Assembly: GCA_037444445.1 (NCBI GenBank)
Contig: JBBIMK010000028.1
Location: 7,523 to 26,961 of the forward strand
Origin: a bacterium
GTDB taxonomy: Bacteria > UBP7 > UBA6624 > JBBIMK01
Direction of reading: 5' to 3'
DNA: 19,439 bases
This document shows, piece after piece, positions 286-15,752 of the stretch. The notes beneath the pieces were generated by a model. That model had not been told where the DNA came from, made no database searches, and saw only the letters and a list, made by a program, of their open reading frames with translations. Made by a program: the position numbers and the translations under genes. Position 1 is the first letter of the stretch, and each line of letters opens with the position of its first letter.

Positions 286-371
286 TCCGGGGTAGCTCAA
301 CCGGCAGAGTCCCGACGGAACCGTCGGGATTAACCCATAGGCTGCGGGTTCGCCCCCCGCCCCCGGAGCCA
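286..371 (+). tRNA. tRNA-like gene (86 nt, encoded CCA) with a non-canonical anticodon region; isotype undeterminable
   Basis: Acceptor stem TCCGGGG (286-292) pairs with CCCCGGA (361-367). T8 and A9 are present. D arm is GCTC-AACCGGCA-GAGT, with A14, G18, G19 and A21 in place. T arm is GCGGG-TTCGCCC-CCCGC. Discriminator G368 is followed by CCA at 369-371. The 33 nt between the D and T arms (311-343) form a perfect CCCGAC-GGAACC-GTCGGG hairpin plus 15 nt. No 5bp-7nt-5bp register pairs there. Confidence 0.5.
296..364. repeat. Direct repeat C, copy 2 (inside the full tRNA-like gene)
   Basis: Identical to 177-245. Confidence 0.95.
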
Positions 372-1532: not shown

Positions 1533-1637
1533 CCCCTGCAGGGTCAACCCCTATTTCCTCATTCTCTAAATCTCGTTTCCTACGCCTGTCTGACCTGGAA
1601 TCCATCCATTTCACTGGCGATTATAAACAGAGCACGC

Positions 1638-2099
1638 TCAATCAGGTTGAATTTCTTGCCTGACTTCATTCAGGATTACGAGGATTTCCTCGTAAGTTCC
1701 ATTCCCACCCATTTTGTCCCAGAACTCGTGTCCCATTAATAATGGATAGTCCATATCAATCACCCGTTTAGTGAATGAATGCCCGTATTTTTCCCTGTAA
1801 ATGTAAGGGTTATAGGGAAACGCAAGGTATCCTCCCCAATTTCTCTCACCCCTGGAGAGCATATAGGCGTAAAATGTAAGAATTTTCTTCTTTGATTCGG
1901 CACAGACATCCAGGTTGGGTAGAGGAGTTTTGACCTCGGCGAAGAAAGGGGCGCCATTCAGCCTTTCAATATACAGGTCAGCATTGAAAGGATAAAGTCG
2001 CTTCTCGGAAGATTTTTCTGATGTTTCAGCCAGCTCTCGTAGTTCAGTTTTATTCCTGCCGCCTCCAGCTTGTCAAGGAAGCCAAATATCACTGCTCAT
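1638..2099 (-). pseudogene. Disrupted PD-(D/E)XK-like nuclease gene (possibly TdeIII-type restriction-endonuclease-like); last gene of a 3-gene cassette
   Basis: The ATG at 2099-2097 overlaps the upstream stop in an ATGA arrangement. That frame hits an in-frame TGA at 2075-2073 after 8 codons, then stays open for 145 codons to the stop at 1638. An alternative start is GTG at 2092 in another frame (IFGFLDKLEAAGIKLNYESWLKHQKN). That frame needs a 1-nt shift near the A5 run (about 2013-2020) to join the long frame. The long frame contains NADLYIERLNGAPFFAEVKTPLPN, a D-x14-E-x-K nuclease-like signature. Confidence 0.5.
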
Positions 2100-2365
2100 C
2101 CGCCATATTTCTTCCTTCGCTCACACAGCCGCTTAACGTCTCGCACCGATACTAAGCCATCAGCCCGCAGGACATAGAGCGTTTCTTGGATGATTTCATC
2201 TCTGACATCACTTGTGGATAGGCCGAACTCCTTGCGCACCTTTTGCGTGAGTTGGTTAAGGTTCTCCGCTAACGCCTGCTCAGGTGTGTCACCTTCAGCG
2301 CTATCAACAAGATAGTAGGTAGGCACCTCACCCCAGCCACTAAAATAAAGAACTTCATAAACCAT
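2096..2365 (-). CDS. Hypothetical protein, 89 aa (no recognisable family)
   Basis: The ORF is preceded by GAGGAGG 11 nt upstream. Its stop overlaps the start of the downstream nuclease ORF (ATGA). The sequence is acidic with predicted helices (MVYEVLYFSGWGEVPTYYLVDSAEGDTPEQALAENLNQL...). Confidence 0.55.
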   Translation of the reverse strand: MVYEVLYFSGWGEVPTYYLVDSAEGDTPEQALAENLNQLTQKVRKEFGLSTSDVRDEIIQETLYVLRADGLVSVRDVKRLCERRKKYGG

Positions 2366-2381
2366 CTTTCATTTAACCTCC

Positions 2382-2516
2382 TCAAAGAAATTCTTTGATT
2401 CCTTCAGACCACTGTTGTTTCTCAAACGGGCGGAACAACTTTAAAAAGTTCTGCCCGCTCAGATACCTCGCGTCTCCTTCAATCACCATATCCAGAAAGC
2501 GGTTTATTTCGCTCAT
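2382..2516 (-). CDS. Hypothetical small protein, 44 aa (below the ORF-track cutoff)
   Basis: Manual translation gives MSEINRFLDMVIEGDARYLSGQNFLKLFRPFEKQQWSEGIKEFL*. It ends 16 nt before the 89-aa ORF, and its stop lies just upstream of that ORF's GAGGAGG. A TATAAT (minus strand, 2533-2528) sits 11 nt upstream of the ATG. Confidence 0.35.
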   Translation of the reverse strand: MSEINRFLDMVIEGDARYLSGQNFLKLFRPFEKQQWSEGIKEFL

Positions 2517-2528
2517 CCTTTATTTCCA

Positions 2529-2543
2529 TTATATAACATATAA
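2529..2543. promoter_or_regulatory. Inverted repeat TTATAT-AAC-ATATAA overlapping the putative -10 of the minus-strand cassette (candidate operator)
   Basis: The 6-3-6 palindrome was read directly. It overlaps the minus-strand TATAAT at 2528-2533. Confidence 0.3.
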
Positions 2544-2618
2544 CGAAAAGGATTTACGCGGGCAAGTTTTCAATGACAACTGTGTTATGATTAGGGCTGG
2601 AAGGGATAGTGAAAAGGA

Positions 2619-5606
2619 ATGGTAGGTGTGGAAGTCTTTCGGGTGTATCCCACGAGAACGGCGAGTCTTCTCGCACAGTATGAAGGGATGAAAGGGAGGG
2701 AAACCGGTACGGGAACGCTTACCGGAACTCTCTTTGATGTGGTGGAGAGGGTGCTGGATGCTTCCCTCACCCCATTGATCCGAATCTCCCACACCGCTCG
2801 TCTTTATACTACGGTAGCACTGATGGACAGGGCAGGTGTAATGGCAACTCCGCTCATTGCGGAGAGGGAAAAAGTGGGGTATGCCCGGGGCGTGCTGGAG
2901 ATTTTCAATGATTTCCAGCAGAACCGGATGAGCCCCCAGGAGGTTCATTCTCTAACGAAGAGGGTTCAGCAGGAGGGACAGAGATTTCATCGTCTCTATC
3001 GCACCTTTTCACAGATTGCCCAACTTTATGAGGACTACGACCAGGTTTTACAGAGGAAGGGGTGGATGGATGATGTGGGGGCATTGCAGGAAGCGACGGC
3101 AGCGCTCCAGCAGGGTGTTTTCTCGCCCTTCTCTTCCATTGCCCTGTGTGGTTTTTACACTTTCACGCCTGCACAGGGGGATTTTCTCGCCGCCCTGCAA
3201 GCCTCCGGCTGTGAGGTGCGCTACGAGAAGCCTCCCTACGCCCCTTCGCCCGATAGAGAGCCTACCCTCTATTCTATTCTCCAGCCATTTCTCGTCGGTG
3301 GCGGAGAACGGGTGGAACCCGAGAGAGCACAAACTCCTGGACCACTGGATTCTGCGTTCTTCCTATGCCCCACCTTGCCGGATGAAATCCGCATTGCCTC
3401 ACAGAAGATGAAACAACTCCTGCTGAAAACGGATGCCCGGCCAGAGGATTGCCTGCTGGTTTTCCGAACCTTTGAGTCAGATATTCTTTCGTTGAGCGCG
3501 GAAGATGTGCTTCACGCCCTGTCTGTTTATGGTTTGCCTATCACCTCTGCAGTTCCTTCCACCCTTCTTCAGTCGCCTTTTATTCACTTCCTTCTGACAC
3601 TCCTGAAACTGAAGAAGGAGAATTACCCGAGGAAATCTTTCATCAGCCTGCTGTGGAACCCATATATAAAAGGGCTTGTGGGCGAAATCTCACCCCGAAC
3701 CATCCAGCAGGTGGATGAGGGCAGCCTGGCTCACTCCCCGGGGAAACCCGAAATTCCAACGGCTCGTGTGAGAAGGGTGATGGGAGGCGAAGAGGAGTGG
3801 AAAGGTTTACTGAAAGATATGGACCTCTTAGACAGATTCTCCCCCCTCTTCTCCTCTCTCCATCCCTTTCAGGAGGACAACACTTTTGCCGTGTTTGCGG
3901 GGAACCTGCAGGCTGTGCTCCGACGCTTCTCCTTGCCTCTTTCTTCTGACGACCAGAAAGCCAGAGAGTTATTCCTCAGGGAACTCGCGGTAGTCGGAGA
4001 ATCGCTGGGCTCTATAAAAATCTCCCTGGATGCTTTCCTTGAAACTGTGGAAACGCTGTGCAGGCATACTCACTGGATGCCTGGTAAATTCAATCCGGCG
4101 AGCGTCATACTATGCACGGCCATGGAAGCACTGGGGGTTCGTCGTCCATTCCTCTTCCTTTGCAATCTGACGGAGAAAGGATTTCCGCTCTCCGCCCCGG
4201 AAGTGCCCATCCTTTCCTGGACCGCCCGGGAGGTGTTGAACCACCTTGCCGGGAAGCCTATTTTTCTCACCCGGGAGGTTCATCAAGAGACCGAGCGGGT
4301 GCTATTCCGAGCCTGCGTAACCTCCGCCACTCATCGGGTCCTCTTCTTCTCCCACTATTTAGAGGGGGAGGAGCCGGTTCAGCCTTCCCCCTTCCTCTCC
4401 ACTTATGCTCCTTCCTCTCTCACCTATAACGAAAAGCAAAAGACTTACAGCATCCGGGAAGTGCTACAGCCGGAACCTGAAGATGTGTATCATCCGGAAG
4501 AGTGCGCCCGCGCCCTTCTTTCCCGTAGAATTTCAGCATCTCAACTATCGGGTTTTCTTGGGGCTTACGCCCCACCTTCCCGGTGCGCTCGTCTGGAAGG
4601 TGCCCTGCGAGCGGAGCAACTTCGCTGGAGCGAAGCCTATTCCCCTTATGATGGCGTCCTGACCGACCCCTCCCTCCTCTCGCACCTTGCCCTCAGGGGT
4701 AAGGATAGGGAACATCACCTCTCTCCTACCGCTCTGGAATCCTATGGCAAATGTCCCTACCAATACTTCGCTGACAAAGTCCTCCGTCTGAAAAAATATG
4801 AGGAACCGGAGGAGGATATTTCTCCCATGGATGCAGGCGATGTCCTCCACCGAATTCTGCAGAAAACCTTTGAAAAGTTGAAACCCTTTGAGGTGAATCT
4901 CACGAAGGAAAAACTCCTGGGAGCAGGAATGCAAGCCTCGGAGGAAATCTTTATGGAAATCCAGCAATCTTCCCCTTCCCTCCCGCCTTTGTGGAGTATT
5001 TTCCAGTTCCGCGTCCTCTTATTGCTTCAACGCTACCTTCCCGCTGAATTCTTCCGATTACAGGAATGGCGATTACAGCCCATTGCCCTGGAGCAATGGC
5101 TGGAGGGGTATGTAATAAAAGGGCAAGAGCCTGATGTGTTTCTGTTGGGGAAAACCGACCGTGTAGACCTCCGGGATAACCAACTCTTCATCACGGATTA
5201 TAAAACGGGTGGACTCTCTACCCACGCTTTTGTGGATTATCGCAACCTGCAACTGGCTTTATATCTGCTCCTGGCGGTGGAAAAATGGGGAAAGCCTGCC
5301 GGAGGCGGCGCCTATGTGTCTCTCACGAAGCCCGGCACCACCGTGCCCGGAATGCCACCAGAAAATGTCGCCAGGGATTTAATGGATGCTCAGGAACTCA
5401 CCCACTTCTATGTGTCTGGCATCCGCAGGGGAATGTTTCCTCCCCTCCCCGGCAACCATAAGGAAGAGAAAGAGGTCATATTAAAGAAAGAGTCCTCGCC
5501 AGGCGGCGATTGCTCCTACTGCCCTTATCTCTCCCTCTGCCGAATCGCCAGCCTCCAGGGAAGCCGTAAAATCAACCCCCTCCGGTTTGGAGACCTCAGG
5601 ATTTGA
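2619..5606 (+). CDS. AddB/RexB-like PD-(D/E)XK (RecB-family) nuclease with Fe-S cluster cysteines; N-terminal P-loop segment apparently missing
   Basis: 995-aa ORF. The C-terminal nuclease domain shows SPTALESYGKCPYQYFADKVL, GKTDRVDL...FITDYKTG and LQLALYLL, and ends with CSYCPYLSLC. One upstream Cys plus CxxCx5C is the AddB-type 4Fe-4S ligand pattern. The N-terminal part resembles an inactivated UvrD-like helicase scaffold. No GxxGxGKT motif is present, and a stop codon lies 2 codons upstream of the ATG. Confidence 0.75.
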   Translation: MVGVEVFRVYPTRTASLLAQYEGMKGRETGTGTLTGTLFDVVERVLDASLTPLIRISHTARLYTTVALMDRAGVMATPLIAEREKVGYARGVLEIFNDFQQNRMSPQEVHSLTKRVQQEGQRFHRLYRTFSQIAQLYEDYDQVLQRKGWMDDVGALQEATAALQQGVFSPFSSIALCGFYTFTPAQGDFLAALQASGCEVRYEKPPYAPSPDREPTLYSILQPFLVGGGERVEPERAQTPGPLDSAFFLCPTLPDEIRIASQKMKQLLLKTDARPEDCLLVFRTFESDILSLSAEDVLHALSVYGLPITSAVPSTLLQSPFIHFLLTLLKLKKENYPRKSFISLLWNPYIKGLVGEISPRTIQQVDEGSLAHSPGKPEIPTARVRRVMGGEEEWKGLLKDMDLLDRFSPLFSSLHPFQEDNTFAVFAGNLQAVLRRFSLPLSSDDQKARELFLRELAVVGESLGSIKISLDAFLETVETLCRHTHWMPGKFNPASVILCTAMEALGVRRPFLFLCNLTEKGFPLSAPEVPILSWTAREVLNHLAGKPIFLTREVHQETERVLFRACVTSATHRVLFFSHYLEGEEPVQPSPFLSTYAPSSLTYNEKQKTYSIREVLQPEPEDVYHPEECARALLSRRISASQLSGFLGAYAPPSRCARLEGALRAEQLRWSEAYSPYDGVLTDPSLLSHLALRGKDREHHLSPTALESYGKCPYQYFADKVLRLKKYEEPEEDISPMDAGDVLHRILQKTFEKLKPFEVNLTKEKLLGAGMQASEEIFMEIQQSSPSLPPLWSIFQFRVLLLLQRYLPAEFFRLQEWRLQPIALEQWLEGYVIKGQEPDVFLLGKTDRVDLRDNQLFITDYKTGGLSTHAFVDYRNLQLALYLLLAVEKWGKPAGGGAYVSLTKPGTTVPGMPPENVARDLMDAQELTHFYVSGIRRGMFPPLPGNHKEEKEVILKKESSPGGDCSYCPYLSLCRIASLQGSRKINPLRFGDLRI

Positions 5607-5772
5607 GATGGAACATTTACGATTATAGAAAAGAAAGTGTAGATGGGTCCCGTAATAGTCAGGACTTCACAAAAATTGATTCATCAGTGCTTCTACGGGC
5701 AGAAAATATTCACTCTGGAAGTCAAGGACAGGATGATTCGTCCCTCGCACGGGTGAAATTGCGGTGTTACCG

Positions 5773-5807
5773 GAAGGAAAAAGCAGAATACCCATCCTTT
5801 TGCCTTC
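5773..5807. terminator. Hairpin between the convergent AddB-like and GNAT genes (possible bidirectional terminator)
   Basis: GAAGGAAAAAG (5773-5783) pairs with CTTTTGCCTTC (5797-5807). The stem is 11 bp with one mismatch and a 13-nt loop. It starts 7 nt past the GNAT stop. The arms are T/A-rich, but there is no clean U-tract. Confidence 0.35.
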
Positions 5808-5813
5808 ACGCAC

Positions 5814-6290
5814 TCATTTTAGCCGTTTTTCCATCTTACGCAGGATGGGTTGGTAACCCAGTTTTTCGTAGAATGCGATGGCATCGGAATTTACTTCCCA
5901 GACATCCAGATGGAGGACATTGATTCCTTTAGAGCGAGCCCATGCTTCAACTATTTGCATCAGTTTTTTTCCCGTTCCCGCTTTGCGATAATCCCTGTGA
6001 ACAGCCAGTTCGTTTATGCTCACCCGGGGGATAGAAATCAGGTCATCTTGCCTCTTTTCCACCTCCGCATAAACATACCCTGCCAATTTTCCGTTCACTA
6101 CAGCGACGAAAATGACTGCATCCGGCGAATTCAAAGCCCGGCGGTAAAAGTCTGCTGTCGCCTCTTCTCCTTTTGGTCTTCTCCGCACTTTCAAGAAATT
6201 TGCCCGCAGGCGTGCCATCTTTTGATAAAACTCCTCTGCCATAGAAAGAATCGGAGTTATATCCTCTTCTCTTGCCACCCGGATTTCCAT
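5814..6290 (-). CDS. GNAT family N-acetyltransferase
   Basis: 158 aa. The acetyl-CoA binding motif is present as VHRDYRKAGTGKKLM (Q/R-x-x-G-x-G/A). The length and beta-alpha pattern are typical of GNAT proteins. Confidence 0.85.
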   Translation of the reverse strand: MEIRVAREEDITPILSMAEEFYQKMARLRANFLKVRRRPKGEEATADFYRRALNSPDAVIFVAVVNGKLAGYVYAEVEKRQDDLISIPRVSINELAVHRDYRKAGTGKKLMQIVEAWARSKGINVLHLDVWEVNSDAIAFYEKLGYQPILRKMEKRLK

Positions 6291-6298
6291 TCACTTTC

Positions 6299-6307
6299 AT
6301 TATAACA
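6299..6307 (-). promoter_or_regulatory. Extended -10 (TGtTATAAT) 8 nt upstream of the GNAT ATG, implying a leaderless or near-leaderless mRNA
   Basis: The minus strand reads ttttgTTATAATgaaagtgaATG. Confidence 0.4.
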
Positions 6308-6407
6308 AAACCTTTCTGCGAATCATACACTCAATTGGACATCACACTGGTAGTTCGGATTATCCTCACTTCTGTATGAAGTTCATTTTGCGGAAGGCAG
6401 AATTCGT

Positions 6408-7151
6408 TTAACCAGAGAGGGTGAATAAAAGGGTGATGCTTGCGGAAATCTTCTGTTGCTTCAGGGATTCGGGAATGGGCGAGAAAGGGGAGGCTTTCCG
6501 AATCGCTTCTACTGCCGCATCATCCAGCAGGCGAAATCCAGAACCTTTCCGGATGTGTATATCCTCCACCTGGCCATCTGATTGTATGGAAAATTCCACT
6601 TCTACTTTGCCCTGTTGTTCCAGCCTTAATGCCATTTTGGGATATTCTTTTCTGGAGTCAATCTTCTTGAAAACCTCCATCAGATAGGCTTGAAGAATAG
6701 ATTCTGTATTTTGCAAAGAGTCTGTTCCATTTCCATCGCTGGTACTCCCGCCTCTCGGAGGGCCCCCATCTGATGGCAGTATCACCGTTCCATGCGGCAA
6801 ACCCGTGTCCTGTCCCATTGGCCGATTTCCAGAAGTGGGTTCCTCGGAAGTTGAAGAGGGTGAGGCAGGTGTAGATGCGCCAGTCAGGAGGGGGGCTTTG
6901 AACTCTGTCCCGGAAGAAGGGTTGAGTGGTTTTTCAGGCGAGGGAAGTTCAGGCTCTGCATTCCTGATTTTGGAAGGTGGGTTCACTCTCCGCCTCTCCT
7001 TTTCCTTCTCAAGGGGGGCTGAAGTAGTTTTTATGGACCGAATTTCAAGGTTTAAAACAGGTTTTTCTACCGCGCCCAATGAAAAAGCAACGGAAAACAG
7101 AAATAGATGGGCGAGGAAGGAAAGAAGAAGAAAAACACCGTAGGATTTCAT
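6408..7151 (-). CDS. tonB: TonB family energy transducer
   Basis: It has an N-terminal TM helix and a Pro/Ser/Glu-rich spacer. The C-terminal TonB domain reads YPKMALRLEQQGKVEVEFSIQSDGQVEDIHIRKGSGFRLLDDAAVEAIRKA. Its ATG overlaps the exbD stop (ATGA). Confidence 0.85.
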   Translation of the reverse strand: MKSYGVFLLLSFLAHLFLFSVAFSLGAVEKPVLNLEIRSIKTTSAPLEKEKERRRVNPPSKIRNAEPELPSPEKPLNPSSGTEFKAPLLTGASTPASPSSTSEEPTSGNRPMGQDTGLPHGTVILPSDGGPPRGGSTSDGNGTDSLQNTESILQAYLMEVFKKIDSRKEYPKMALRLEQQGKVEVEFSIQSDGQVEDIHIRKGSGFRLLDDAAVEAIRKASPFSPIPESLKQQKISASITLLFTLSG

Positions 7152-7555
7152 GATTTTTCACGAGGCAAGGAAGTCAGAGAGATGTTTTGAATTTTCAGAC
7201 TTCGGAGGATGTCCAGCAATGAAATGAGAGATTGCACCGGGGCAGTGCGGTCAGAAAGAATCTGTGCTGAAACGAGCTCTGAGGAGGCTCTGACTCGCTG
7301 TTCCAACCGTTCGGATAACCGGTCGGCGGTAAGGGTTTCCCCTTCCAGGGAGTAAGTTCCATTGGAATGAACGGAGATGACCAGAGTGAAGGAACTTCTG
7401 GAAATCAGAGCGGTGGAGGATTCTGGAAGGGTCACATCCAGAGTGGGAAGGTGGAGATAGTTCCAGGTGAGGAGGAAAAAGGCGAGGAGTTGGAAGACCA
7501 CATCAATCAAAGGAGCCATCATGATTTGAGGAGGTTTTCGTGCAGGTCTATTCAT
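7148..7555 (-). CDS. exbD: ExbD/TolR biopolymer transport protein
   Basis: The start is chosen at MNRPARKPPQIMMAPLIDVVFQLLAFFLL (ATG at 7555), which overlaps the exbB stop by 8 nt. The longer 160-aa ORF-track version would overlap exbB by 83 nt. Confidence 0.85.
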   Translation of the reverse strand: MNRPARKPPQIMMAPLIDVVFQLLAFFLLTWNYLHLPTLDVTLPESSTALISRSSFTLVISVHSNGTYSLEGETLTADRLSERLEQRVRASSELVSAQILSDRTAPVQSLISLLDILRSLKIQNISLTSLPREKS

Positions 7556-8108
7556 GGGGGTAGAGTTTTTGTTTTTCCATAGTGACAATGAACCGGAGAT
7601 TGCGAATCTGCCTGCCTGCGAGGGAATCAAACAGGTAATAAGTCAGGAGAGCGGGGATGGCCACCACCAGCCCGAAGACGGTGGTGAGGAGGGCTTCCCA
7701 GATTCCACCGGCTAACAAAGACGGGTCTACTTTCCAGCCCAGATGCTCAATCACCATGAAGGAGCGAACCATGCCCGTAACAGTGCCCAGCAGGCCGAGG
7801 AGAGGAGAGAGAGTAGCGATGGCAGAAAGGAGCCCCAATCCTGTTTCTACCTCATCCACGAAGGGTTGCATCTTCATCTCTGCGAGGGCGGTCCATTGCT
7901 CGGAGGTAGGTTTCGGATTGGAATGGTGGAGAGATTGCAATTGCATGGAAAATCGCTGAGCCAGGGATTTGGCTCGGGTGGAAAAGAAAAACAGACGCTC
8001 CAGGATGATGCCGAGAGAAGCGACAGAAAGAAACAGGATGGGCCACATCACCCAACCGCCTCTCAGAAAAAGCGTCCACAGTGATATGGAAGGTGAGTTC
8101 ATATTCAT
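7548..8108 (-). CDS. exbB: MotA/TolQ/ExbB proton-channel family protein
   Basis: 186 aa with three TM segments. The conserved LLGLLGTVTGMVRSF motif is present. Confidence 0.85.
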   Translation of the reverse strand: MNMNSPSISLWTLFLRGGWVMWPILFLSVASLGIILERLFFFSTRAKSLAQRFSMQLQSLHHSNPKPTSEQWTALAEMKMQPFVDEVETGLGLLSAIATLSPLLGLLGTVTGMVRSFMVIEHLGWKVDPSLLAGGIWEALLTTVFGLVVAIPALLTYYLFDSLAGRQIRNLRFIVTMEKQKLYPHE

Positions 8109-8118
8109 CCTGCCTTCA

Positions 8119-8811
8119 TTATTTTACACCGTGTTTGCCGGGTTCTGAAACACAGGAAAGGTAGCCTCGCCAGATGAGGAGAATACCGATAAACTCCATT
8201 CCATAAAGCACCTCCGTGTATCCGAAGCGGGTGAAGGCGCCTCCAATGCCGGGCAGGAGCGCCCCCGCAGCAATGAATATATTTCCGATGAAGCGGTGGT
8301 AAGTATCTGTGCGTTTGAAGTATTTGTATGCGGAGAGGGCGGCTCCGCCGACTAAGAATATCAGGGCGTAGAGATTGACGAAGGGACTGAAGAGCCTTAC
8401 CCAGCCCCATTCCATTACCCGCCCCGTCAATCGGTGGGCCTCCACCAGGTCCCTCCGAATGGGGACGATGAGGATAAAGGAAGAGGCGACAGCGATGTAG
8501 GCCAGCAGGGCAGAGGTGAGGAAATTTGCCACCCGTTTGTTCAGATGGAAATATACGGAGCCTTGAGCCAGAGGAGCACCGCCCAGCAGAGCGCCTGAAA
8601 TATACCAGAGCCGAAAAACAACCGGATTCCACCCGAATAGCGTTACAAGGCTCTCGGTCAAAGTTCCAAGTCCGTAGGTGAAAATCCCTCCCGTCCACCA
8701 CCCCAGGTGGGGCGGACGGGATTTCTGAAGATACCGCCGATAAAGGGAAATCCCGAATATCACAGAGAGAACCGTCGTGAGAATGGGAACATAGTGTACC
8801 AGGGAAGACAT
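8119..8811 (-). CDS. Uncharacterised polytopic inner-membrane protein (about 6-7 TM) embedded in the TonB uptake operon
   Basis: 230-aa ORF that is strongly hydrophobic and rich in Gly and aromatic residues. It starts 13 nt after the receptor stop and ends 10 nt before exbB. No family was recognised. Confidence 0.6.
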   Translation of the reverse strand: MSSLVHYVPILTTVLSVIFGISLYRRYLQKSRPPHLGWWTGGIFTYGLGTLTESLVTLFGWNPVVFRLWYISGALLGGAPLAQGSVYFHLNKRVANFLTSALLAYIAVASSFILIVPIRRDLVEAHRLTGRVMEWGWVRLFSPFVNLYALIFLVGGAALSAYKYFKRTDTYHRFIGNIFIAAGALLPGIGGAFTRFGYTEVLYGMEFIGILLIWRGYLSCVSEPGKHGVK

Positions 8812-8824
8812 GGCGGGCAGATTT

Positions 8825-10753
8825 TCACCAGTTCACATCGTATCCGGCATAGAAGATTCTACCCTGCGATGGCCCAAAAGGAGGGCGCTCCACGCCGATG
8901 ACATTGTTCACTCCGAGGAAAATGCGATAACCATCCAGTGGAATGGTAAACTCCACATCCATCAGAGTATACTGTTTTACTTTCCCCGGCGGTGACCCTG
9001 TGGATTCTGTGCTGATTCCGAACTGCTGGGTTCCCACATAGGTGAAGCGAACAGAGGAGGAGTAGCGAGGATTGTGGAAGAGAAAACGCACATTCGCCTG
9101 GGCATCGGGGGTGAATTCCAGGGTTCTGCCAGTGGTAAGATTTCTTGCATTCTGGAAAACGCCGCCGGCCTGAATGGAAAAAGTGGAAGAAAACCGGTAT
9201 TGCCCTTCCCACTCCACGCCCTGCACCCGCGCCGATTCTACATTTTGATACCGCCACTCCTCCACATCTGGAGTGTTCGGGTCATCCTGTTTGATGAAAA
9301 GAATCAGGTCATTCACCCGATTATAGAATCCGTTCAGGCGGTAAAAAGAGCGGCCGTGGGGACCCGACTCCAGGGTCAACTGATAATTTTTGGAAGTCTC
9401 GGGAGAAAGGTCGGGGTTTCCGAGGATGCGGATAGATGAGGCAGGACCGGTGGGAATCAGGAAGTCCTGGAAGAGTTCTGTGGGATCCGGGGAGCGGAAG
9501 CCTTTCCCTGCAGAAAGTTTTGCGCGAAAGCGAGGCGAGAAGTGCTTCACCAACCCTGCTCTGGGTATACCTTCTCCTCCGAATCGGGAGTGGTCGGTCC
9601 AGCGGAATCCATAAACCCCTTCCCAGGTTCTGGCGAATTGCCACTGTCCTTGCAGGTAGCCTTCCTGAAGGCGAACGGTCTGGGTTTTTGGTGAGATGCG
9701 GTCAGAAGTGTAACGGTCCCGAATGGAATCCGCCCCGACGGTGAGCAGATGGGCCTCTGTCAGCGGATAATCGTATTGAACCTCATACCGCTGATAGCGG
9801 TCCCGGATGTCAGAACGAGTGGCTGGGCGGGGAGGACGCACCTCGGTGAAGGAGTGGTAGAAAGGGTTAGAAAAGGCGAAGAATTGCAGACGGGAGCCTT
9901 TCCTCGTGGTGAACTGGTAACGAAGTTGCTGGGTAGACAGGCGGTCCCAGAATCCCCAGGAAGTTTTTTGTTGTCGGGAGACACTCCAGAGAAAGAATTT
10001 GGAATAGTTGGTGAAATAATCGTCCTGCAAGGTGATGGAGGAGGTGGGAGTCAGAGGAACTTGAATCTTGATGGAGTAGTTATTTTTTCGGAATTCAGGA
10101 GAATCCAGAGCCGGGTCATCAGGATGGAGGTCAATGCCGTCTGAACTCCTTCGGTCGTAGGAGAGCAGGGCCTTCCATTTTTTAGAGGTGAGAGTGTAAG
10201 AAATGAAATGCTCCTGTTGAGCCGGAGTTCCACCCCGGGAATAGAGCGAAAATTGAGGTTTTTCCGGGCTACGAGTGATGATATGGATGACTCCGGCAAT
10301 GGCATCAGAACCGTAGAGAGTGGATTGAGGTCCCCTGACGATTTCAATTCTTTCCACATTCTGGAGGGGAATCAGGCTCAGGTCTACCCGATTTCTCACC
10401 TTGGAGTTGACGGGCATTCCATCCACCAGCACCAGCACCTTGTTGTCCCGGAACCCCTGGATATTCACGGAATAAACACCCGACTGAGAGACCTGAGTCA
10501 CGAGCCCCGGGATTTCTTTGAGGGCTTCTTCCAGAGTGGTCCAGCCGAACCGGCGGATTTCCTCCTGAGTAATGACGGAAGTGGCGAAAGGTGATTCTAT
10601 GAGCGTTCTGGGGGTTCGTGTGCCTGTCACCACGACTTCCCCCAGGGGATATGAAACTATCGGTGACTCCTGCCCCCGGGCTGGGATAGGGAGTGTGAAA
10701 AGAGCCCAGGACAGGAGGGGAAAAAGAAGGGGAAAATTTTTCAGGTTCATCAT
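8825..10753 (-). CDS. TonB-dependent outer-membrane receptor (BtuB-size, plug plus 22-strand barrel)
   Basis: Signal peptide MMNLKNFPLLFPLLSWALFTLPIPARG. Plug motifs are GEVVVTGTRTP, VERIEIVRGPQSTLYGSDAIAGVIHIIT and LVDGMPVN. The C-terminus ends in an aromatic residue (...YAGYDVNW). GGAGG lies 6 nt upstream of the ATG. Confidence 0.9.
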   Translation of the reverse strand: MMNLKNFPLLFPLLSWALFTLPIPARGQESPIVSYPLGEVVVTGTRTPRTLIESPFATSVITQEEIRRFGWTTLEEALKEIPGLVTQVSQSGVYSVNIQGFRDNKVLVLVDGMPVNSKVRNRVDLSLIPLQNVERIEIVRGPQSTLYGSDAIAGVIHIITRSPEKPQFSLYSRGGTPAQQEHFISYTLTSKKWKALLSYDRRSSDGIDLHPDDPALDSPEFRKNNYSIKIQVPLTPTSSITLQDDYFTNYSKFFLWSVSRQQKTSWGFWDRLSTQQLRYQFTTRKGSRLQFFAFSNPFYHSFTEVRPPRPATRSDIRDRYQRYEVQYDYPLTEAHLLTVGADSIRDRYTSDRISPKTQTVRLQEGYLQGQWQFARTWEGVYGFRWTDHSRFGGEGIPRAGLVKHFSPRFRAKLSAGKGFRSPDPTELFQDFLIPTGPASSIRILGNPDLSPETSKNYQLTLESGPHGRSFYRLNGFYNRVNDLILFIKQDDPNTPDVEEWRYQNVESARVQGVEWEGQYRFSSTFSIQAGGVFQNARNLTTGRTLEFTPDAQANVRFLFHNPRYSSSVRFTYVGTQQFGISTESTGSPPGKVKQYTLMDVEFTIPLDGYRIFLGVNNVIGVERPPFGPSQGRIFYAGYDVNW

Positions 10754-10773
10754 TCATCGCCTCCATTTGACTG

Positions 10774-10802
10774 AGAATACTATATTTTGACTTTTTTGTC
10801 AA
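10774..10802 (-). promoter_or_regulatory. Sigma70-type promoter of the receptor operon (TTGACA-17-TATTCT)
   Basis: The minus strand reads TTGACAaaaaagtcaaaatatagTATTCT, followed by cagtcaaatGGAGGcgatgaATG. Confidence 0.5.
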
Positions 10803-10803
10803 A
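10786..10803. promoter_or_regulatory. Inverted repeat TTTGAC-N6-GTCAAA overlapping the receptor -35 (candidate TetR operator)
   Basis: The palindrome was read directly. It lies in the 114-bp divergent region between the receptor and tetR-family genes. Confidence 0.4.
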
Positions 10804-10839
10804 TCCTGAACTCCTCCCCTTTCCCTTTTCCCTCCCTTG

Positions 10840-10848
10840 TGTTATAGT
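10840..10848 (+). promoter_or_regulatory. Extended -10 (TGtTATAGT) upstream of the TetR-family gene
   Basis: It lies 19 nt upstream of the ATG at 10868. AGGTGAAGG sits between the element and the ATG. Confidence 0.35.
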
Positions 10849-10867
10849 GAAACAGGTGAAGGCTAAC

Positions 10868-11539
10868 ATGAGTCCGAAGAAACTGGCGCGGATACAAAAG
10901 GACCACAGCCTGAGAAGAGAAGAGATTTTACAGGCTGCCGCCTCTCTTTTCTGCAAAAAAGGCATCCTCGCCACTACTATGGATGACATCGCCCGTGAAC
11001 TCAAAGTGGCCAAAGGCTTCCTCTACTATTATTTCCCCTCCAGAGAAGACCTCCTCCTGGCTCTTTTAGCAGAGGGCTGGAAGTCTTTCCTTTCCATCGT
11101 GGAATCACAGGACATCCCCCGAAACCGGGAGGGTTTTCTTCTCCTCCTCCGCCGGTTGATTGAAGCCTACAACGCCCAGCCTTATCTCTACGGTGCGTTG
11201 TTCCAACTGAGTCCACAGGCAGGTTCCTTATTCCCGTCGGAGAAACTGAAAACCCCGGAGAAACTCAAAAAAAGGGCCTACGCCCTGATTCAGAAAAGGT
11301 TAGAAGAGGATTTTCAAGTCAGTGATTCCTCCCATTTGATGCGTAACATAGGTGGCATCCTCTTTGGCTATCTCCGCCTGGGAAGAGAGAAAAAGCCCAT
11401 CTCCGCTGATGAAGTCCTTGACACTGTGAATAAACTTCTTCCTCCAGTAGCCAGCAGCCTGTTGACGCCAAAGAGAGGAAAGAGTGGCCGGAGGGATTCT
11501 CCTGCCCTCCCTGATTCCAGTGAGATGGGTGAGAGATGA
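10868..11539 (+). CDS. TetR/AcrR family transcriptional regulator
   Basis: The N-terminal HTH reads RREEILQAAASLFCKKGILATTMDDIARELKVAKGFLYYYFPSREDLL. The start is moved to the internal ATG at 10868 because the upstream 27 codons cross the promoter region. Confidence 0.85.
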   Translation: MSPKKLARIQKDHSLRREEILQAAASLFCKKGILATTMDDIARELKVAKGFLYYYFPSREDLLLALLAEGWKSFLSIVESQDIPRNREGFLLLLRRLIEAYNAQPYLYGALFQLSPQAGSLFPSEKLKTPEKLKKRAYALIQKRLEEDFQVSDSSHLMRNIGGILFGYLRLGREKKPISADEVLDTVNKLLPPVASSLLTPKRGKSGRRDSPALPDSSEMGER

Positions 11540-11776
11540 GAATTTATTTCAGGAAGAAGTGGTATCGCTTGACGGGGTAAGAAACATAACAGATGAGGAA
11601 AGAGTGGAATTTTTATACGAGGATAGATGGGGATAAGTTGGCATTATCCTCCTGCCCTTTCTTCTTTTTCTCGCTTCCCTCCGCGTAATCTACTTTCCCT
11701 TTTCGTCCACACATCCCCCTTTTTTACAGGGAACTTTTCTGCAGAAAGCAGTCAAAATTTCGTGGAGGTAGTAAAG

Positions 11777-11926
11777 TATGAAGCGAAGAAAAGGGGAAAT
11801 TGTGGTGAAGTCAATTGCAGGGGTTTTCCAGTTGTATGCTGTTTTTTCCAGCGGTGGAGGAGGTTCCGTGATTCTGCCCCCGGTAGGATGTGAGTTTCCG
11901 AGCGGAAGCCCCCCTCATAGAGAATA
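11777..11926 (+). CDS. Candidate small ORF, 49 aa, in the long nadA upstream region
   Basis: Manual translation gives MKRRKGEIVVKSIAGVFQLYAVFSSGGGGSVILPPVGCEFPSGSPPHRE*. GGAGG lies 9 nt upstream of the ATG. No homology was recognised. Confidence 0.2.
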
Positions 11927-11997
11927 GAAATTAGATTAAGAAAGAATTCTATTGACGGAGAAGAGAATTTCCAGCAAAATTATGATGAGAGAGGGTT

Positions 11998-13125
11998 ATG
12001 CCTGAAAGCCTCACTTTGAACCTGTTCAGGTATACTTTTTCACCACTTCCGGAAGAGTACTGGGATATTCCAGAGCCGGAACGGGTGGAGAGAACCGGGA
12101 AAGCGAAAAAATATCTGGGGAAGGATGTGCTACTTCTGGCGCATAATTATCAACGGGATGAAATTGTAGAATTTGCAGATTTCACTGGCGATTCATATCA
12201 ACTCTCTCGTTTTGCGGCGGAGAATCGGGATGCCCGGACGGTTGTTTTTTGTGGTGTATCTTTTATGGCGGAAACGGTGGACATCCTGTGCGAAGGGCGG
12301 AAGACGGTCATCTTGCCCTCTATGGAGGCTTCTTGCCCCATGGCCGGGATGGCAGAACTTGTGCAGGTGGAAAAAGCCTGGGAGGAAGTGACGGATTTGA
12401 TTGTGGCAGAAGAGATTCTCCCCATCACCTATATAAACTCTTATGCTGATTTGAAGGCATTCACAGCAAAGCATGATGGGGCGGTATGCACCTCTTCCAA
12501 TGCGCTGGCTGTGTTTCAATGGGCTCTTCACCAGAACAGACGAATCTTTTTCTATCCCGACCAGAATTTGGGGCTGAATATCTGGCTGAAAGCAGGGCAA
12601 ACAGAATCCGATACCCTCCTCTGGAACCCCTGGGAATCCAAACTGGGTGGGAACTCCCCCGAAAAAATCAAAAAAACCCGGCTCTTTCTCTGGCGGGGGT
12701 TCTGTCAGGTTCACGACCGGTTCAAGGTGGAGCATGTCCACGAAGTGAAGGCAAAATATCCTGACATAAAAGTCCTTGTGCATCCGGAGTGTATCCGGGA
12801 GGTTGTGGCTCTGGCGGATGTGGTAGGGTCAACCAGCCAGATTATTCGGGCTGTAGAGAAGGCTCCGTCGGGCACAAAGTGGGCTATCGGCACCGAGTTT
12901 CATCTGGTCCATCGCTTGAAGAACCAGCATCCAGAGCAATTTATCATCCCCCTCGGGTGTGAGGTCTGCATTGACTGCAATGCGATGCAACAGATTGACC
13001 CGAATTACCTGTTATGGGTGATGGAAGAATTGGCGGAGGGCCGGGTTCACAACCGCATCCGCGTGGAAGAGGAAGATGCACATTGGGCGCGCGTCGCCCT
13101 TCAGCGGATGCTCGCCATCGTGTAA
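11998..13125 (+). CDS. nadA: Quinolinate synthase NadA
   Basis: 375 aa. Matching segments include LLAHNYQRDEIVEFADFTGDSYQLSR and VFCGVSFMAETVDIL. Conserved cluster cysteines occur at SCPMA, GFCQVH and CIDCNAM. VHPEC is also present. Confidence 0.9.
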   Translation: MPESLTLNLFRYTFSPLPEEYWDIPEPERVERTGKAKKYLGKDVLLLAHNYQRDEIVEFADFTGDSYQLSRFAAENRDARTVVFCGVSFMAETVDILCEGRKTVILPSMEASCPMAGMAELVQVEKAWEEVTDLIVAEEILPITYINSYADLKAFTAKHDGAVCTSSNALAVFQWALHQNRRIFFYPDQNLGLNIWLKAGQTESDTLLWNPWESKLGGNSPEKIKKTRLFLWRGFCQVHDRFKVEHVHEVKAKYPDIKVLVHPECIREVVALADVVGSTSQIIRAVEKAPSGTKWAIGTEFHLVHRLKNQHPEQFIIPLGCEVCIDCNAMQQIDPNYLLWVMEELAEGRVHNRIRVEEEDAHWARVALQRMLAIV

Positions 13126-15194: not shown

Positions 15195-15752
15195 TCAGGA
15201 TAGCAGATGCCTCAGCACGGCAATCTGACAGTTCAATTCCAGAGTTTCCAGGAGAATATAACACTCAAAAAGGTCAGAACCTGCCGACAGAACACCGTGA
15301 TTTTGAAGGATGACTATGGGGGAAAATGAAAGAGCATGAACCACAGCCTTCACATCTTCAACTGTGGCTGTGAACTGGGGAAGGACCCTGACGATGCCCA
15401 GCATTTTTGCCCCTTCCAGGGTAGGGGGCGTGAAAGAATCCAGTTTCTCTGAAAGGACGATAGCGTAAGGAGAGTGAAGGTGAAGACAGGCCCGGTAAAC
15501 AGTGCCCTGATAAATGGCCAGATGGAGAGGAAGTTCCGAGGATGGCTGTTTCCCTTTCAGCACACTTCCATCCGGGGTCACCTCCACCAGGTCCGGCTCA
15601 ATCAGCCCTCCGAGAAAGGCTCCCGTGCGGGTGATGATGACCTTATTTTCCTCCGGGATAAACACGCTCATATTACCACCGGTTCCAGCGGTCAGCCCTT
15701 TAGAATATGCCAATTTCCCTACTAACATGAATTCTTCTGAATGGTAAGGCAA
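15195..15752 (-). CDS. Class II aldolase/adducin family protein
   Basis: Matching segments are GLTAGTGGNMSV, ITRTG, PSSELPLHLAIY, LHLHSPYA and ILQNHGVLSAG. The start is moved to TTG at 15752, which has GGAGG 8 nt upstream. The 241-aa ORF-track version overlaps the ZIP gene by 122 nt. ATG at 15728 is an alternative start. Confidence 0.75.
   Translation of the reverse strand: MPYHSEEFMLVGKLAYSKGLTAGTGGNMSVFIPEENKVIITRTGAFLGGLIEPDLVEVTPDGSVLKGKQPSSELPLHLAIYQGTVYRACLHLHSPYAIVLSEKLDSFTPPTLEGAKMLGIVRVLPQFTATVEDVKAVVHALSFSPIVILQNHGVLSAGSDLFECYILLETLELNCQIAVLRHLLS

Follow-up and report, generated by a model that had tools for sequence, protein, structure and literature searches.

In the 19,439-nucleotide stretch of the bacterial contig JBBIMK010000028.1 analysed here (hereafter the window), the minus strand between a GTPase gene and an AddB-like gene carries what is very probably an eroded type II restriction-modification cluster (1638-2537) of the arrangement methylase-X-s89-TdeIII-type endonuclease, in which X and s89 are two gene families described below. 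The parts of the cluster are found in different states: the methylase gene is gone, X is a stub, the endonuclease gene is headless, and s89, represented by the open reading frame (ORF) orf89, is intact. The locus itself is an ordinary remnant, for which an endonuclease pseudogene, a gene stub and one hypothetical gene would be the fitting annotation. The new element is the s89 family, with X as its recurrent partner; both are in none of Pfam-A, NCBIfam, PADLOC and PHROGs. We tentatively propose that s89, sometimes together with X, could be an undescribed accessory part of type II systems of the TdeIII/EcoO109I endonuclease superfamily that binds the endonuclease and modulates, inhibits or chaperones it.

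Remnants of an endonuclease gene and of gene X

The cassette and its borders comprise the following features (L010 is a related contig discussed below; lengths are in amino acids, aa, base pairs, bp, or nucleotides, nt).

2516-2382, minus strand: orf44, 44 aa; 3' stub of gene X, comprising its last ~27-44 codons and stop
2383-2377, minus strand: GAGGAGG, a Shine-Dalgarno-like motif 11 nt ahead of the orf89 ATG, overlapping the orf44 stop
2365-2096, minus strand: orf89 (s89), 89 aa; intact gene for a small acidic protein
2099-2096, minus strand: ATGA overlap at the end of orf89, from three-frame translation and reading of the sequence
2099-2073, minus strand: mini-ORF MSSDIWLP followed by TGA; 8 codons in the endonuclease reading frame, its ATG lying in the ATGA overlap
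2054-1638, minus strand: 5'-truncated pseudogene of a TdeIII-family (PF09520) endonuclease, residues ~123-259, stop at 1640-1638
2012-2537, minus strand: 526-bp segment without an L010 counterpart (X stub, orf89, a 41-bp junction and endonuclease codons ~123-136)
2538-2618: 81-bp intergenic spacer between the start of the AddB-like gene and the cassette, G+C content (GC) 0.395, common to L010
549-1532, plus strand: GTPase gene, left neighbour of the cassette
2619-5606, plus strand: AddB-like gene, right neighbour of the cassette, start at 2619

The nuclease, which a preliminary description of this DNA had called PD-(D/E)XK-like, is identified as a type II endonuclease by its match to the Pfam family RE_TdeIII (PF09520; E-value 4e-29, 102.3 bits against a gathering cut-off of 27.2), and PADLOC REase_II also matches it (E 1e-16). 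The remnant, short of the full-length domain, covers only positions 129-241 of the 242 in the RE_TdeIII profile, and in the profile of our endonuclease alignment (A5) the match extends over positions 116-248. Homology to the TdeIII-family protein P0001 begins at residue 123: when residues 123-259 were searched with tblastn, they aligned to window positions 2054-1641 in a single frame (66% identity, E 5e-60), and the remnant is 66-73% identical to this part of P0001. The catalytic PD-(D/E)XK block is still encoded (NADLYIE...FFAEVKTPLPNLDVCAESKKK, of the form D...E-V-K...P-N), and it contains the catalytic columns of the family, of which D148, K164, P168, N169 and K177 are invariant and E162 is near-invariant. 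The possibility of a frameshift within the remnant was rejected, as a single reading frame accommodates the homology unbroken from 2054 to 1641, without any repair.

The other half of the protein is missing. No trace of the N-terminal ~120 residues of the best homologues was detected by tblastn in any frame, and no frame encodes an equivalent of the N-terminal columns that are invariant in the family (P38, F39, H40, T60 and G63, among others). Translation from the ATG at 2099, in the endonuclease frame, would end after 8 codons at a TGA (2075-2073), and the next ATG, GTG or TTG in this frame, at 1862, lies beyond the catalytic block. Judged from its sequence, the endonuclease gene has lost ~122 N-terminal codons and its usable start, and the locus can no longer cut DNA. 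The suspicion that the gene was disrupted was thus well founded, whereas its description as an ORF starting in the ATGA has to be abandoned. The tight packing on which an operon had been postulated is real in that orf44 stops 16 nt before the start of orf89 and the ATGA overlap exists; however, the overlapping ATG opens only the 8-codon mini-ORF.

The lengths of orf89 and the remnant sum to 242 aa, and we therefore asked whether orf89 could be the N-terminal half that the endonuclease lacks, split off by a nonsense codon. We joined orf89 and the remnant into one query by reading through the TGA, which leaves the frame unchanged, and retrieved 74 homologues of 156-271 aa, mostly ~250 aa; all of them covered the C-terminal ~28-62% of the query, typically ~46%. 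Because all 74 align to the C-terminal part only, orf89 is not the endonuclease N-terminus, and this candidate was rejected.

The smaller ORF, orf44, had been taken for a small gene of its own; evidently it is instead the 3' stub of a lost gene of ~310 aa, X. Its last 27 residues, YLSGQNFLKLFRPFEKQQWSEGIKEFL, match by tblastn the C-terminal tail of X located right upstream of s89 homologues in other contigs, namely L029 (59% identity, E 5e-8), L026 (64%, E 7e-8) and L011 (52%, E 3e-4), and a profile of X aligns to orf44 at positions 195-221 of 222 (E 1.6e-7). In-frame stop codons are present just upstream of orf44, no spaced ribosome-binding site precedes its ATG, and its sequence was not present in the protein collection searched. 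We also compared orf44 with the methylase or endonuclease encoded ahead of s89 elsewhere, of which it could have been the tail, and rejected this origin for lack of similarity. X itself had no match in Pfam, NCBIfam, PADLOC, PHROGs or the Protein Data Bank (PDB), and it was not found in plasmids; the idea that it is a diverged member of the TdeIII/EcoO109I endonuclease families was dropped on an hhalign probability of <1%. In L029 (939-2123), X and the s89 homologue share a reading frame that no stop interrupts (...EIREVL|MVYEVLYY...), a possible natural fusion on a single 2.4-kb metagenomic contig that hints at cooperation of the two proteins.

These observations bear directly on the preliminary description, which had seen in the region an active inserted operon of the defence or toxin-antitoxin-like kind, with orf44 and orf89 controlling or neutralising the nuclease. 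The tight spacing, the GAGGAGG motif and the ATGA overlap speak for such an operon, as do the relationship of the nuclease to restriction enzymes and the linkage of orf89 homologues to nucleases. Nevertheless, we consider it very improbable: the nuclease lacks ~122 N-terminal residues, including family-invariant columns, its frame is closed after 8 codons and has no further start before 1862, orf44 is a stub of X, L010 does without both orf44 and orf89, and neither of the two matched a toxin-antitoxin or defence family in Pfam, NCBIfam or PADLOC. Because the nuclease is headless and without a usable start, nothing is left for small proteins to control or neutralise.

Other parts of the same description hold. 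The two minus-strand ORFs lie where they had been placed (2516-2382, 44 aa, and 2365-2096, 89 aa), and the strong GAGGAGG (2383-2377) precedes the orf89 ATG by 11 nt. Scans of domain libraries detected no methyltransferase domain in any ORF across the 19.4-kb window, in line with the absence noted earlier. The cassette is indeed AT-richer than its flanks, with a GC of 0.449 for 1533-2618 versus 0.509 for the whole window and 0.537 for each of the flanking genes, and it is the lowest-GC 1,086-bp stretch in the window, with 5601-6686 close behind (0.452). A TdeIII endonuclease remnant of foreign-looking composition between housekeeping genes also agrees with its assignment to restriction/defence-type DNA. 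An Rfam scan of the cassette region matched no family.

Where the GTPase stop and the 3' end of the endonuclease remnant converge (1530-1546), the minus strand contains a perfect 6-bp inverted repeat, TGACCC-TGCAG-GGGTCA, which is kept in L010 save for one base change in the loop. This repeat may be a bidirectional terminator; no T-run follows it, and a terminator scan made no call.

The s89 family and its genomic contexts

The intact member of the cluster belongs to a family of its own. An exhaustive HMMER search with phmmer against 1.84 billion representative proteins yielded 57 proteins at E<=1e-3, 23 of them at E<=1e-10; all save one are ~55-107 aa in length, and most align across nearly the whole conserved core. 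A protein of 1859 aa (P0130) was rejected as an s89 relative, its match being a leucine-rich-repeat artefact. The family, its full-length members ~80-100 aa long, is defined here by two alignments (A2 and A3) and has a core of ~78 residues with the conserved positions Y3, E4, G10, P15, Y17, G25, P28, E29, L32, E61, Y64 and L66; orf89 retains all 12 invariant columns of A3 and is matched by the s89 profile, which includes the window sequence, at positions 2-79 with E 2e-35. The AlphaFold2 model of orf89 is of high quality (predicted local distance difference test, pLDDT, 94.3; predicted template modelling score, pTM, 0.75) and shows a beta-beta-alpha-alpha-beta-alpha topology.

That orf89 might be a chance ORF in non-coding DNA (2055-2537) was suggested by a word-indexed search of 5.8 billion proteins, in which it matched only itself, and by the lack of a curated family match. 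The 57 homologues, the confident model and the conserved gene context leave this explanation next to no credence. Evidently, orf89 is a real, intact and conserved gene of an uncharacterised family, so that conservation at the protein level, on which the preliminary description had made its case depend, is found for one of the two small ORFs. Its statement that neither small protein resembles a family is accurate for curated libraries and does not extend to homologues in general, which orf89 has.

A search of PDB and BFVD with the orf89 model using Foldseek gave no significant match, and the s89 profile matched no PDB sequence. Among 47 family members scanned against Pfam, no domain scored above noise and no helix-turn-helix was detected, and the members tested against NCBIfam, PADLOC and PHROGs had no match. 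A HicB/UPF0150-like or winged-helix nature of s89, cued by the motifs 'G-D-T-P-E-x-A-L' and 'LYVLRxDGLV', was rejected, as the Pfam scan of the 47 members, the PDB profile search and Foldseek all gave none. The conserved core is strongly acidic, with a median net charge of -7 and values of <=-5 in 38 of the 47 members; 13 of the 47 have a basic C-terminal tail. No relative of s89 was found in viral contigs or plasmids. The hosts are Armatimonadota, Chloroflexota, WOR-3 and other uncultured lineages.

The gene neighbourhoods were compared for 14 loci, the window included, that are mostly independent and were partly picked by the length of the contig, so that they represent no census; on three contigs, the sequence ends at the s89 gene. 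In all 14 informative contexts (the window and 13 others), s89 adjoins restriction or methylase genes or X. The association of a small protein with nucleases that had been sought in other genomes is thus present. The arrangements are the following, with R for the endonuclease and M for the methylase.

L012-14 and L015: R(EcoO109I-like)-M-s89
L019-24: M-R(PF09520)-s89, 1-nt gap
L035-38: M-R(PF09520)-s89, 10-nt gap; R is a full 257-aa RE_TdeIII protein (E 1e-82)
L033 and L031: M-R(EcoO109I)-s89
L027: R(EcoO109I)-s89
L028: PADLOC REase_II fragment-s89
L032: Mrr_N / HATPase neighbourhood
L025: X-truncated R(EcoO109I)-s89
L026: X-s89-truncated R(TdeIII)-insertion sequence (IS)
L029: M-X-s89-R(TdeIII), X and s89 in one frame; a near-whole arrangement on a metagenomic contig
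L011: M / X tail-s89

Usually, s89 is located 1-42 nt downstream of the endonuclease gene, and in 9 of the 14 contexts it is the last gene, 3' of R or M; in three others (the window, L026 and L029), the endonuclease gene follows directly after s89. The two endonuclease families in these contexts, TdeIII (PF09520) and EcoO109I (PF14511), are homologous to each other, as a profile comparison of the EcoO109I-like proteins from L012, L015, L025, L027, L031 and L033 with the P0001 set (alignments A4 and A5, respectively) gave an hhalign probability of 96.6% (E 5e-10) over 196 columns.

Several features of individual endonuclease genes and contexts were also recorded. Residues ~82-148 of TdeIII form an insertion that is not present in EcoO109I-like enzymes, and the deletion in the L010 gene (residues 74-136) falls almost exactly there. 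In L025 (671-1384), the EcoO109I-like gene beside X lacks its first ~27-55 codons. In L026 (520-875), the TdeIII-like gene starts near profile position 136-146, carries a frameshift and, within the catalytic motif, a D-to-H change, and is followed by an IS transposase. In L032 (1325-5640), from a WOR-3 bacterium, s89 is found amid unknown genes for proteins of 207 aa, 281 aa (with a weak HATPase_c_3 match) and 449 aa, a 197-aa Mrr_N protein and a 57-aa ORF; this run of genes is followed by an AAA_14/DUF4143 ATPase and looks like a defence island of another kind.

The related contig L010 and the history of the locus

At the end of the remnant, a 74-aa ORF falls into one cluster with a 137-aa protein of the Logan contig L010 (SRR11582170). 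A search of species-representative genomes gave no close relative, the best GTPase identity being 44%. By blastn, L010 is collinear with the window at 96.3% identity over 508-2011 and at 95.5% over 2538-12308 (L010 9768-1), and it has the same order of GTPase, endonuclease remnant and AddB, without orf44 and orf89. The 526-bp segment of the window is replaced in L010 by 272 bp, which consist of a 53-bp leader and endonuclease codons 1-73. The L010 endonuclease gene is itself damaged, with a 1-nt frameshift near codon 55 and with codons 74-136 missing, so that codon 73 is joined straight to codon 137, and no methyltransferase domain was detected in any ORF of L010. The two alternative segments share no DNA similarity (Smith-Waterman score 18 versus a shuffled mean of 19.2); the 53-bp leader was also compared with the 3' end of s89, from which it might have been left over, and this origin was rejected for want of significant similarity. 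At the left junction, the 7-bp sequence GTTATAT is repeated. The proposal that the cassette is an insertion is thus supported to the extent that its content differs in an otherwise ~96%-identical relative; however, L010 keeps an endonuclease remnant at the same place.

The window and L010 differ in the remnant by 8 synonymous and 10 non-synonymous changes (omega 0.32); small as these counts are, this is more synonymous change than expected under neutrality (binomial p 0.02). It points to an endonuclease that was constrained for much of the divergence and inactivated recently. Together with the different lesions, this suggests that inactivation occurred recently and independently in the two genomes. 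In type II systems, an endonuclease without its cognate methylase is lethal. The methylase would accordingly have been lost first, after which deletions inactivating the endonuclease would have been selected; such selection could have acted independently in the window genome and in L010 and given different lesions, precisely because the unprotected endonuclease is lethal. The simplest history would start from an ancestor with the X stub, s89, a spacer and a full-length R, followed by different deletions in each genome.

It is also quite conceivable, if not the simplest history, that the 526-bp segment with the X stub and s89 came from foreign DNA by recombination and took the place of the 5' half of an endonuclease gene that already stood there alone. 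At the shared junction, L010 has the 5' part of the endonuclease gene and the 53-bp leader where the window has unrelated DNA, the GTTATAT repeat could have served as microhomology at the left junction, and the other X-s89 loci in L025 and L026 also abut 5'-truncated endonuclease genes. On the other hand, searches around the junctions for mobile-element ends, repeats or an integrase were negative, the X-s89-R arrangement of L029 appears to be a native operon, and the GC of the segment (0.466) is not distinct from that of the endonuclease remnant (0.43). The order of events is not reconstructible from two genomes. The alleles have no unique sequence in common, yet their left junction is the same within ~20 bp, which makes replacement through recombination no less possible than differential deletion. 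As to the recent inactivation, the omega of the remnant could also reflect residual constraint on the C-terminal fragment.

The right-hand neighbour had been described as truncated at its 5' end in connection with the cassette. The AddB-like gene encodes 995 aa in both the window and L010, with an identical start and a conserved 81-bp upstream spacer. Since its length is the same in L010, which lacks orf44 and orf89, it was not clipped by the cassette, and that connection does not hold. The PDDEXK_1 domain of the protein is complete, residues 84-196 match positions 111-223 of the ADDB_N profile, and the first ~83 residues match no positions of an AddB N-terminal profile; an AddB N-terminus was not found in plasmids. 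With an omega of 0.30 (56 synonymous and 55 non-synonymous differences between window 2619-5606 and L010 6699-9686), the gene evolves fast for a repair gene; the omega of the GTPase gene is 0.085.

To the left of the GTPase gene (1-505) are two fragments, overlapping each other, of a GIY-YIG nuclease gene (PF01541). Both correspond to a single L010 segment (15319-15712), in an orientation inverted relative to the rest of the window, and in L010 ~3.8 kb with TrmO, epimerase and ABC transporter genes, missing in the window, lie between the GTPase gene and this segment. The double mapping and the missing ~3.8 kb therefore indicate a partial duplication and a rearrangement beside the GTPase gene. 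ARAGORN reported a 'tRNA-???' with a four-base anticodon at 286-371 (plus strand) in the GIY-YIG region; it has no Rfam support and is probably a false positive.

Finally, we looked for a footprint of the enzyme in the avoidance of its site, which we take to be GGNCC for TdeIII (and RGGNCCY for EcoO109I). The window contains 49 GGNCC sites versus 119 +/- 11 expected by dinucleotide shuffles (150 for CCNGG). With expectations from a third-order Markov model, the observed/expected ratio is only 0.84 and other palindromes are more depleted, and avoidance of GGNCC as a footprint was rejected. Interrupted palindromes that are under-represented under the same model, in the window and L010, respectively, include GCNGC (0.48 and 0.45), GTNAC (0.61 and 0.49) and CTNAG (0.62 and 0.65). 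There is no GGNCC site between 1197 and 3339.

Proposed role of s89 and comparison with known systems

For the s89 protein, we put forward, as a possibility that is on balance doubtful, a role as an endonuclease-binding inhibitor, immunity-like or assembly factor. Under this proposal, s89 and the endonuclease would be produced at a constant ratio, and s89 would bind its partner so as to temper or assist the activity of the latter, like a nuclease-immunity or assembly factor; the copy in the window would be an orphan left behind by decay. We favour binding over a role like that of the C proteins because of the 3' position of the gene, its coupling-type spacing, the occurrence with one endonuclease superfamily across different methylases, the acidity of the protein and the absence of a helix-turn-helix.

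The proposal also has to face evidence that does not sit well with it. In two contexts of the R-M-s89 type, the methylase gene and a gap of 58-119 nt separate s89 from the endonuclease gene, and no sigma-70-like promoter was found on the orf89 strand. Furthermore, the case for binding is built on charge, on tight spacing and on where the gene lies; no relative emerged from searches by fold or profile. If s89 does modulate the endonuclease, it would constitute a new check on a lethal type II enzyme, a protein-level safety or timing device beside methylation and C-protein control, and it might be of use in taming restriction enzymes.

In the PvuII, EcoO109I and AhdI systems, the gene for the controller (C) protein stands upstream of R, and its product is a basic activator-repressor with a helix-turn-helix (PMC2175313, PMC4824078, PMC2275141). 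Like them, s89 is a small third gene of comparable size that is located directly 5' of the endonuclease gene in the window, as it is in L026 and L029, and the basic C-terminal tail of some members could be seen in the same light; s89 might, then, be a transcriptional controller that times endonuclease expression, which would account for its upstream position here. We regard this as unlikely, because s89 differs from C proteins in its strongly acidic core, in the lack of a helix-turn-helix above noise among the 47 members, in a predicted fold without a DNA-binding relative, and in being mostly encoded 3' of R, as the last gene after R or M in 9 of the 14 contexts. Some role other than binding or control is, all told, more probable than either.

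Returning to a protein that would bind the endonuclease, the barnase-barstar and colicin DNase-Im pairs offer a parallel. In these, a small acidic protein is encoded right after the nuclease gene with coupling-type spacing. The s89 protein is alike in its acidity and in its position after the nuclease gene, which is an analogy only; it has no sequence or fold similarity to these proteins, and restriction systems already have the methylase as protector.

Among the closest known counterparts of the locus are the pairs of a TdeIII-family (PF09520) endonuclease and an N6_N4 methyltransferase, as in L018 and L035. The remnant keeps the D...E-x-K...P-N block of this family, the intact relatives of which reside in M-R operons; the window differs from such systems in retaining only the C-terminal half of the endonuclease, without a start or a methylase, and in having the X stub and s89 in the place of the 5' half. 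Decaying or orphan restriction-modification remnants typically combine loss of the methylase with inactivating deletions or frameshifts, strain-specific lesions and a foreign-looking composition. The window displays the same pattern and is set apart from such remnants by an intact accessory gene of an undescribed family.

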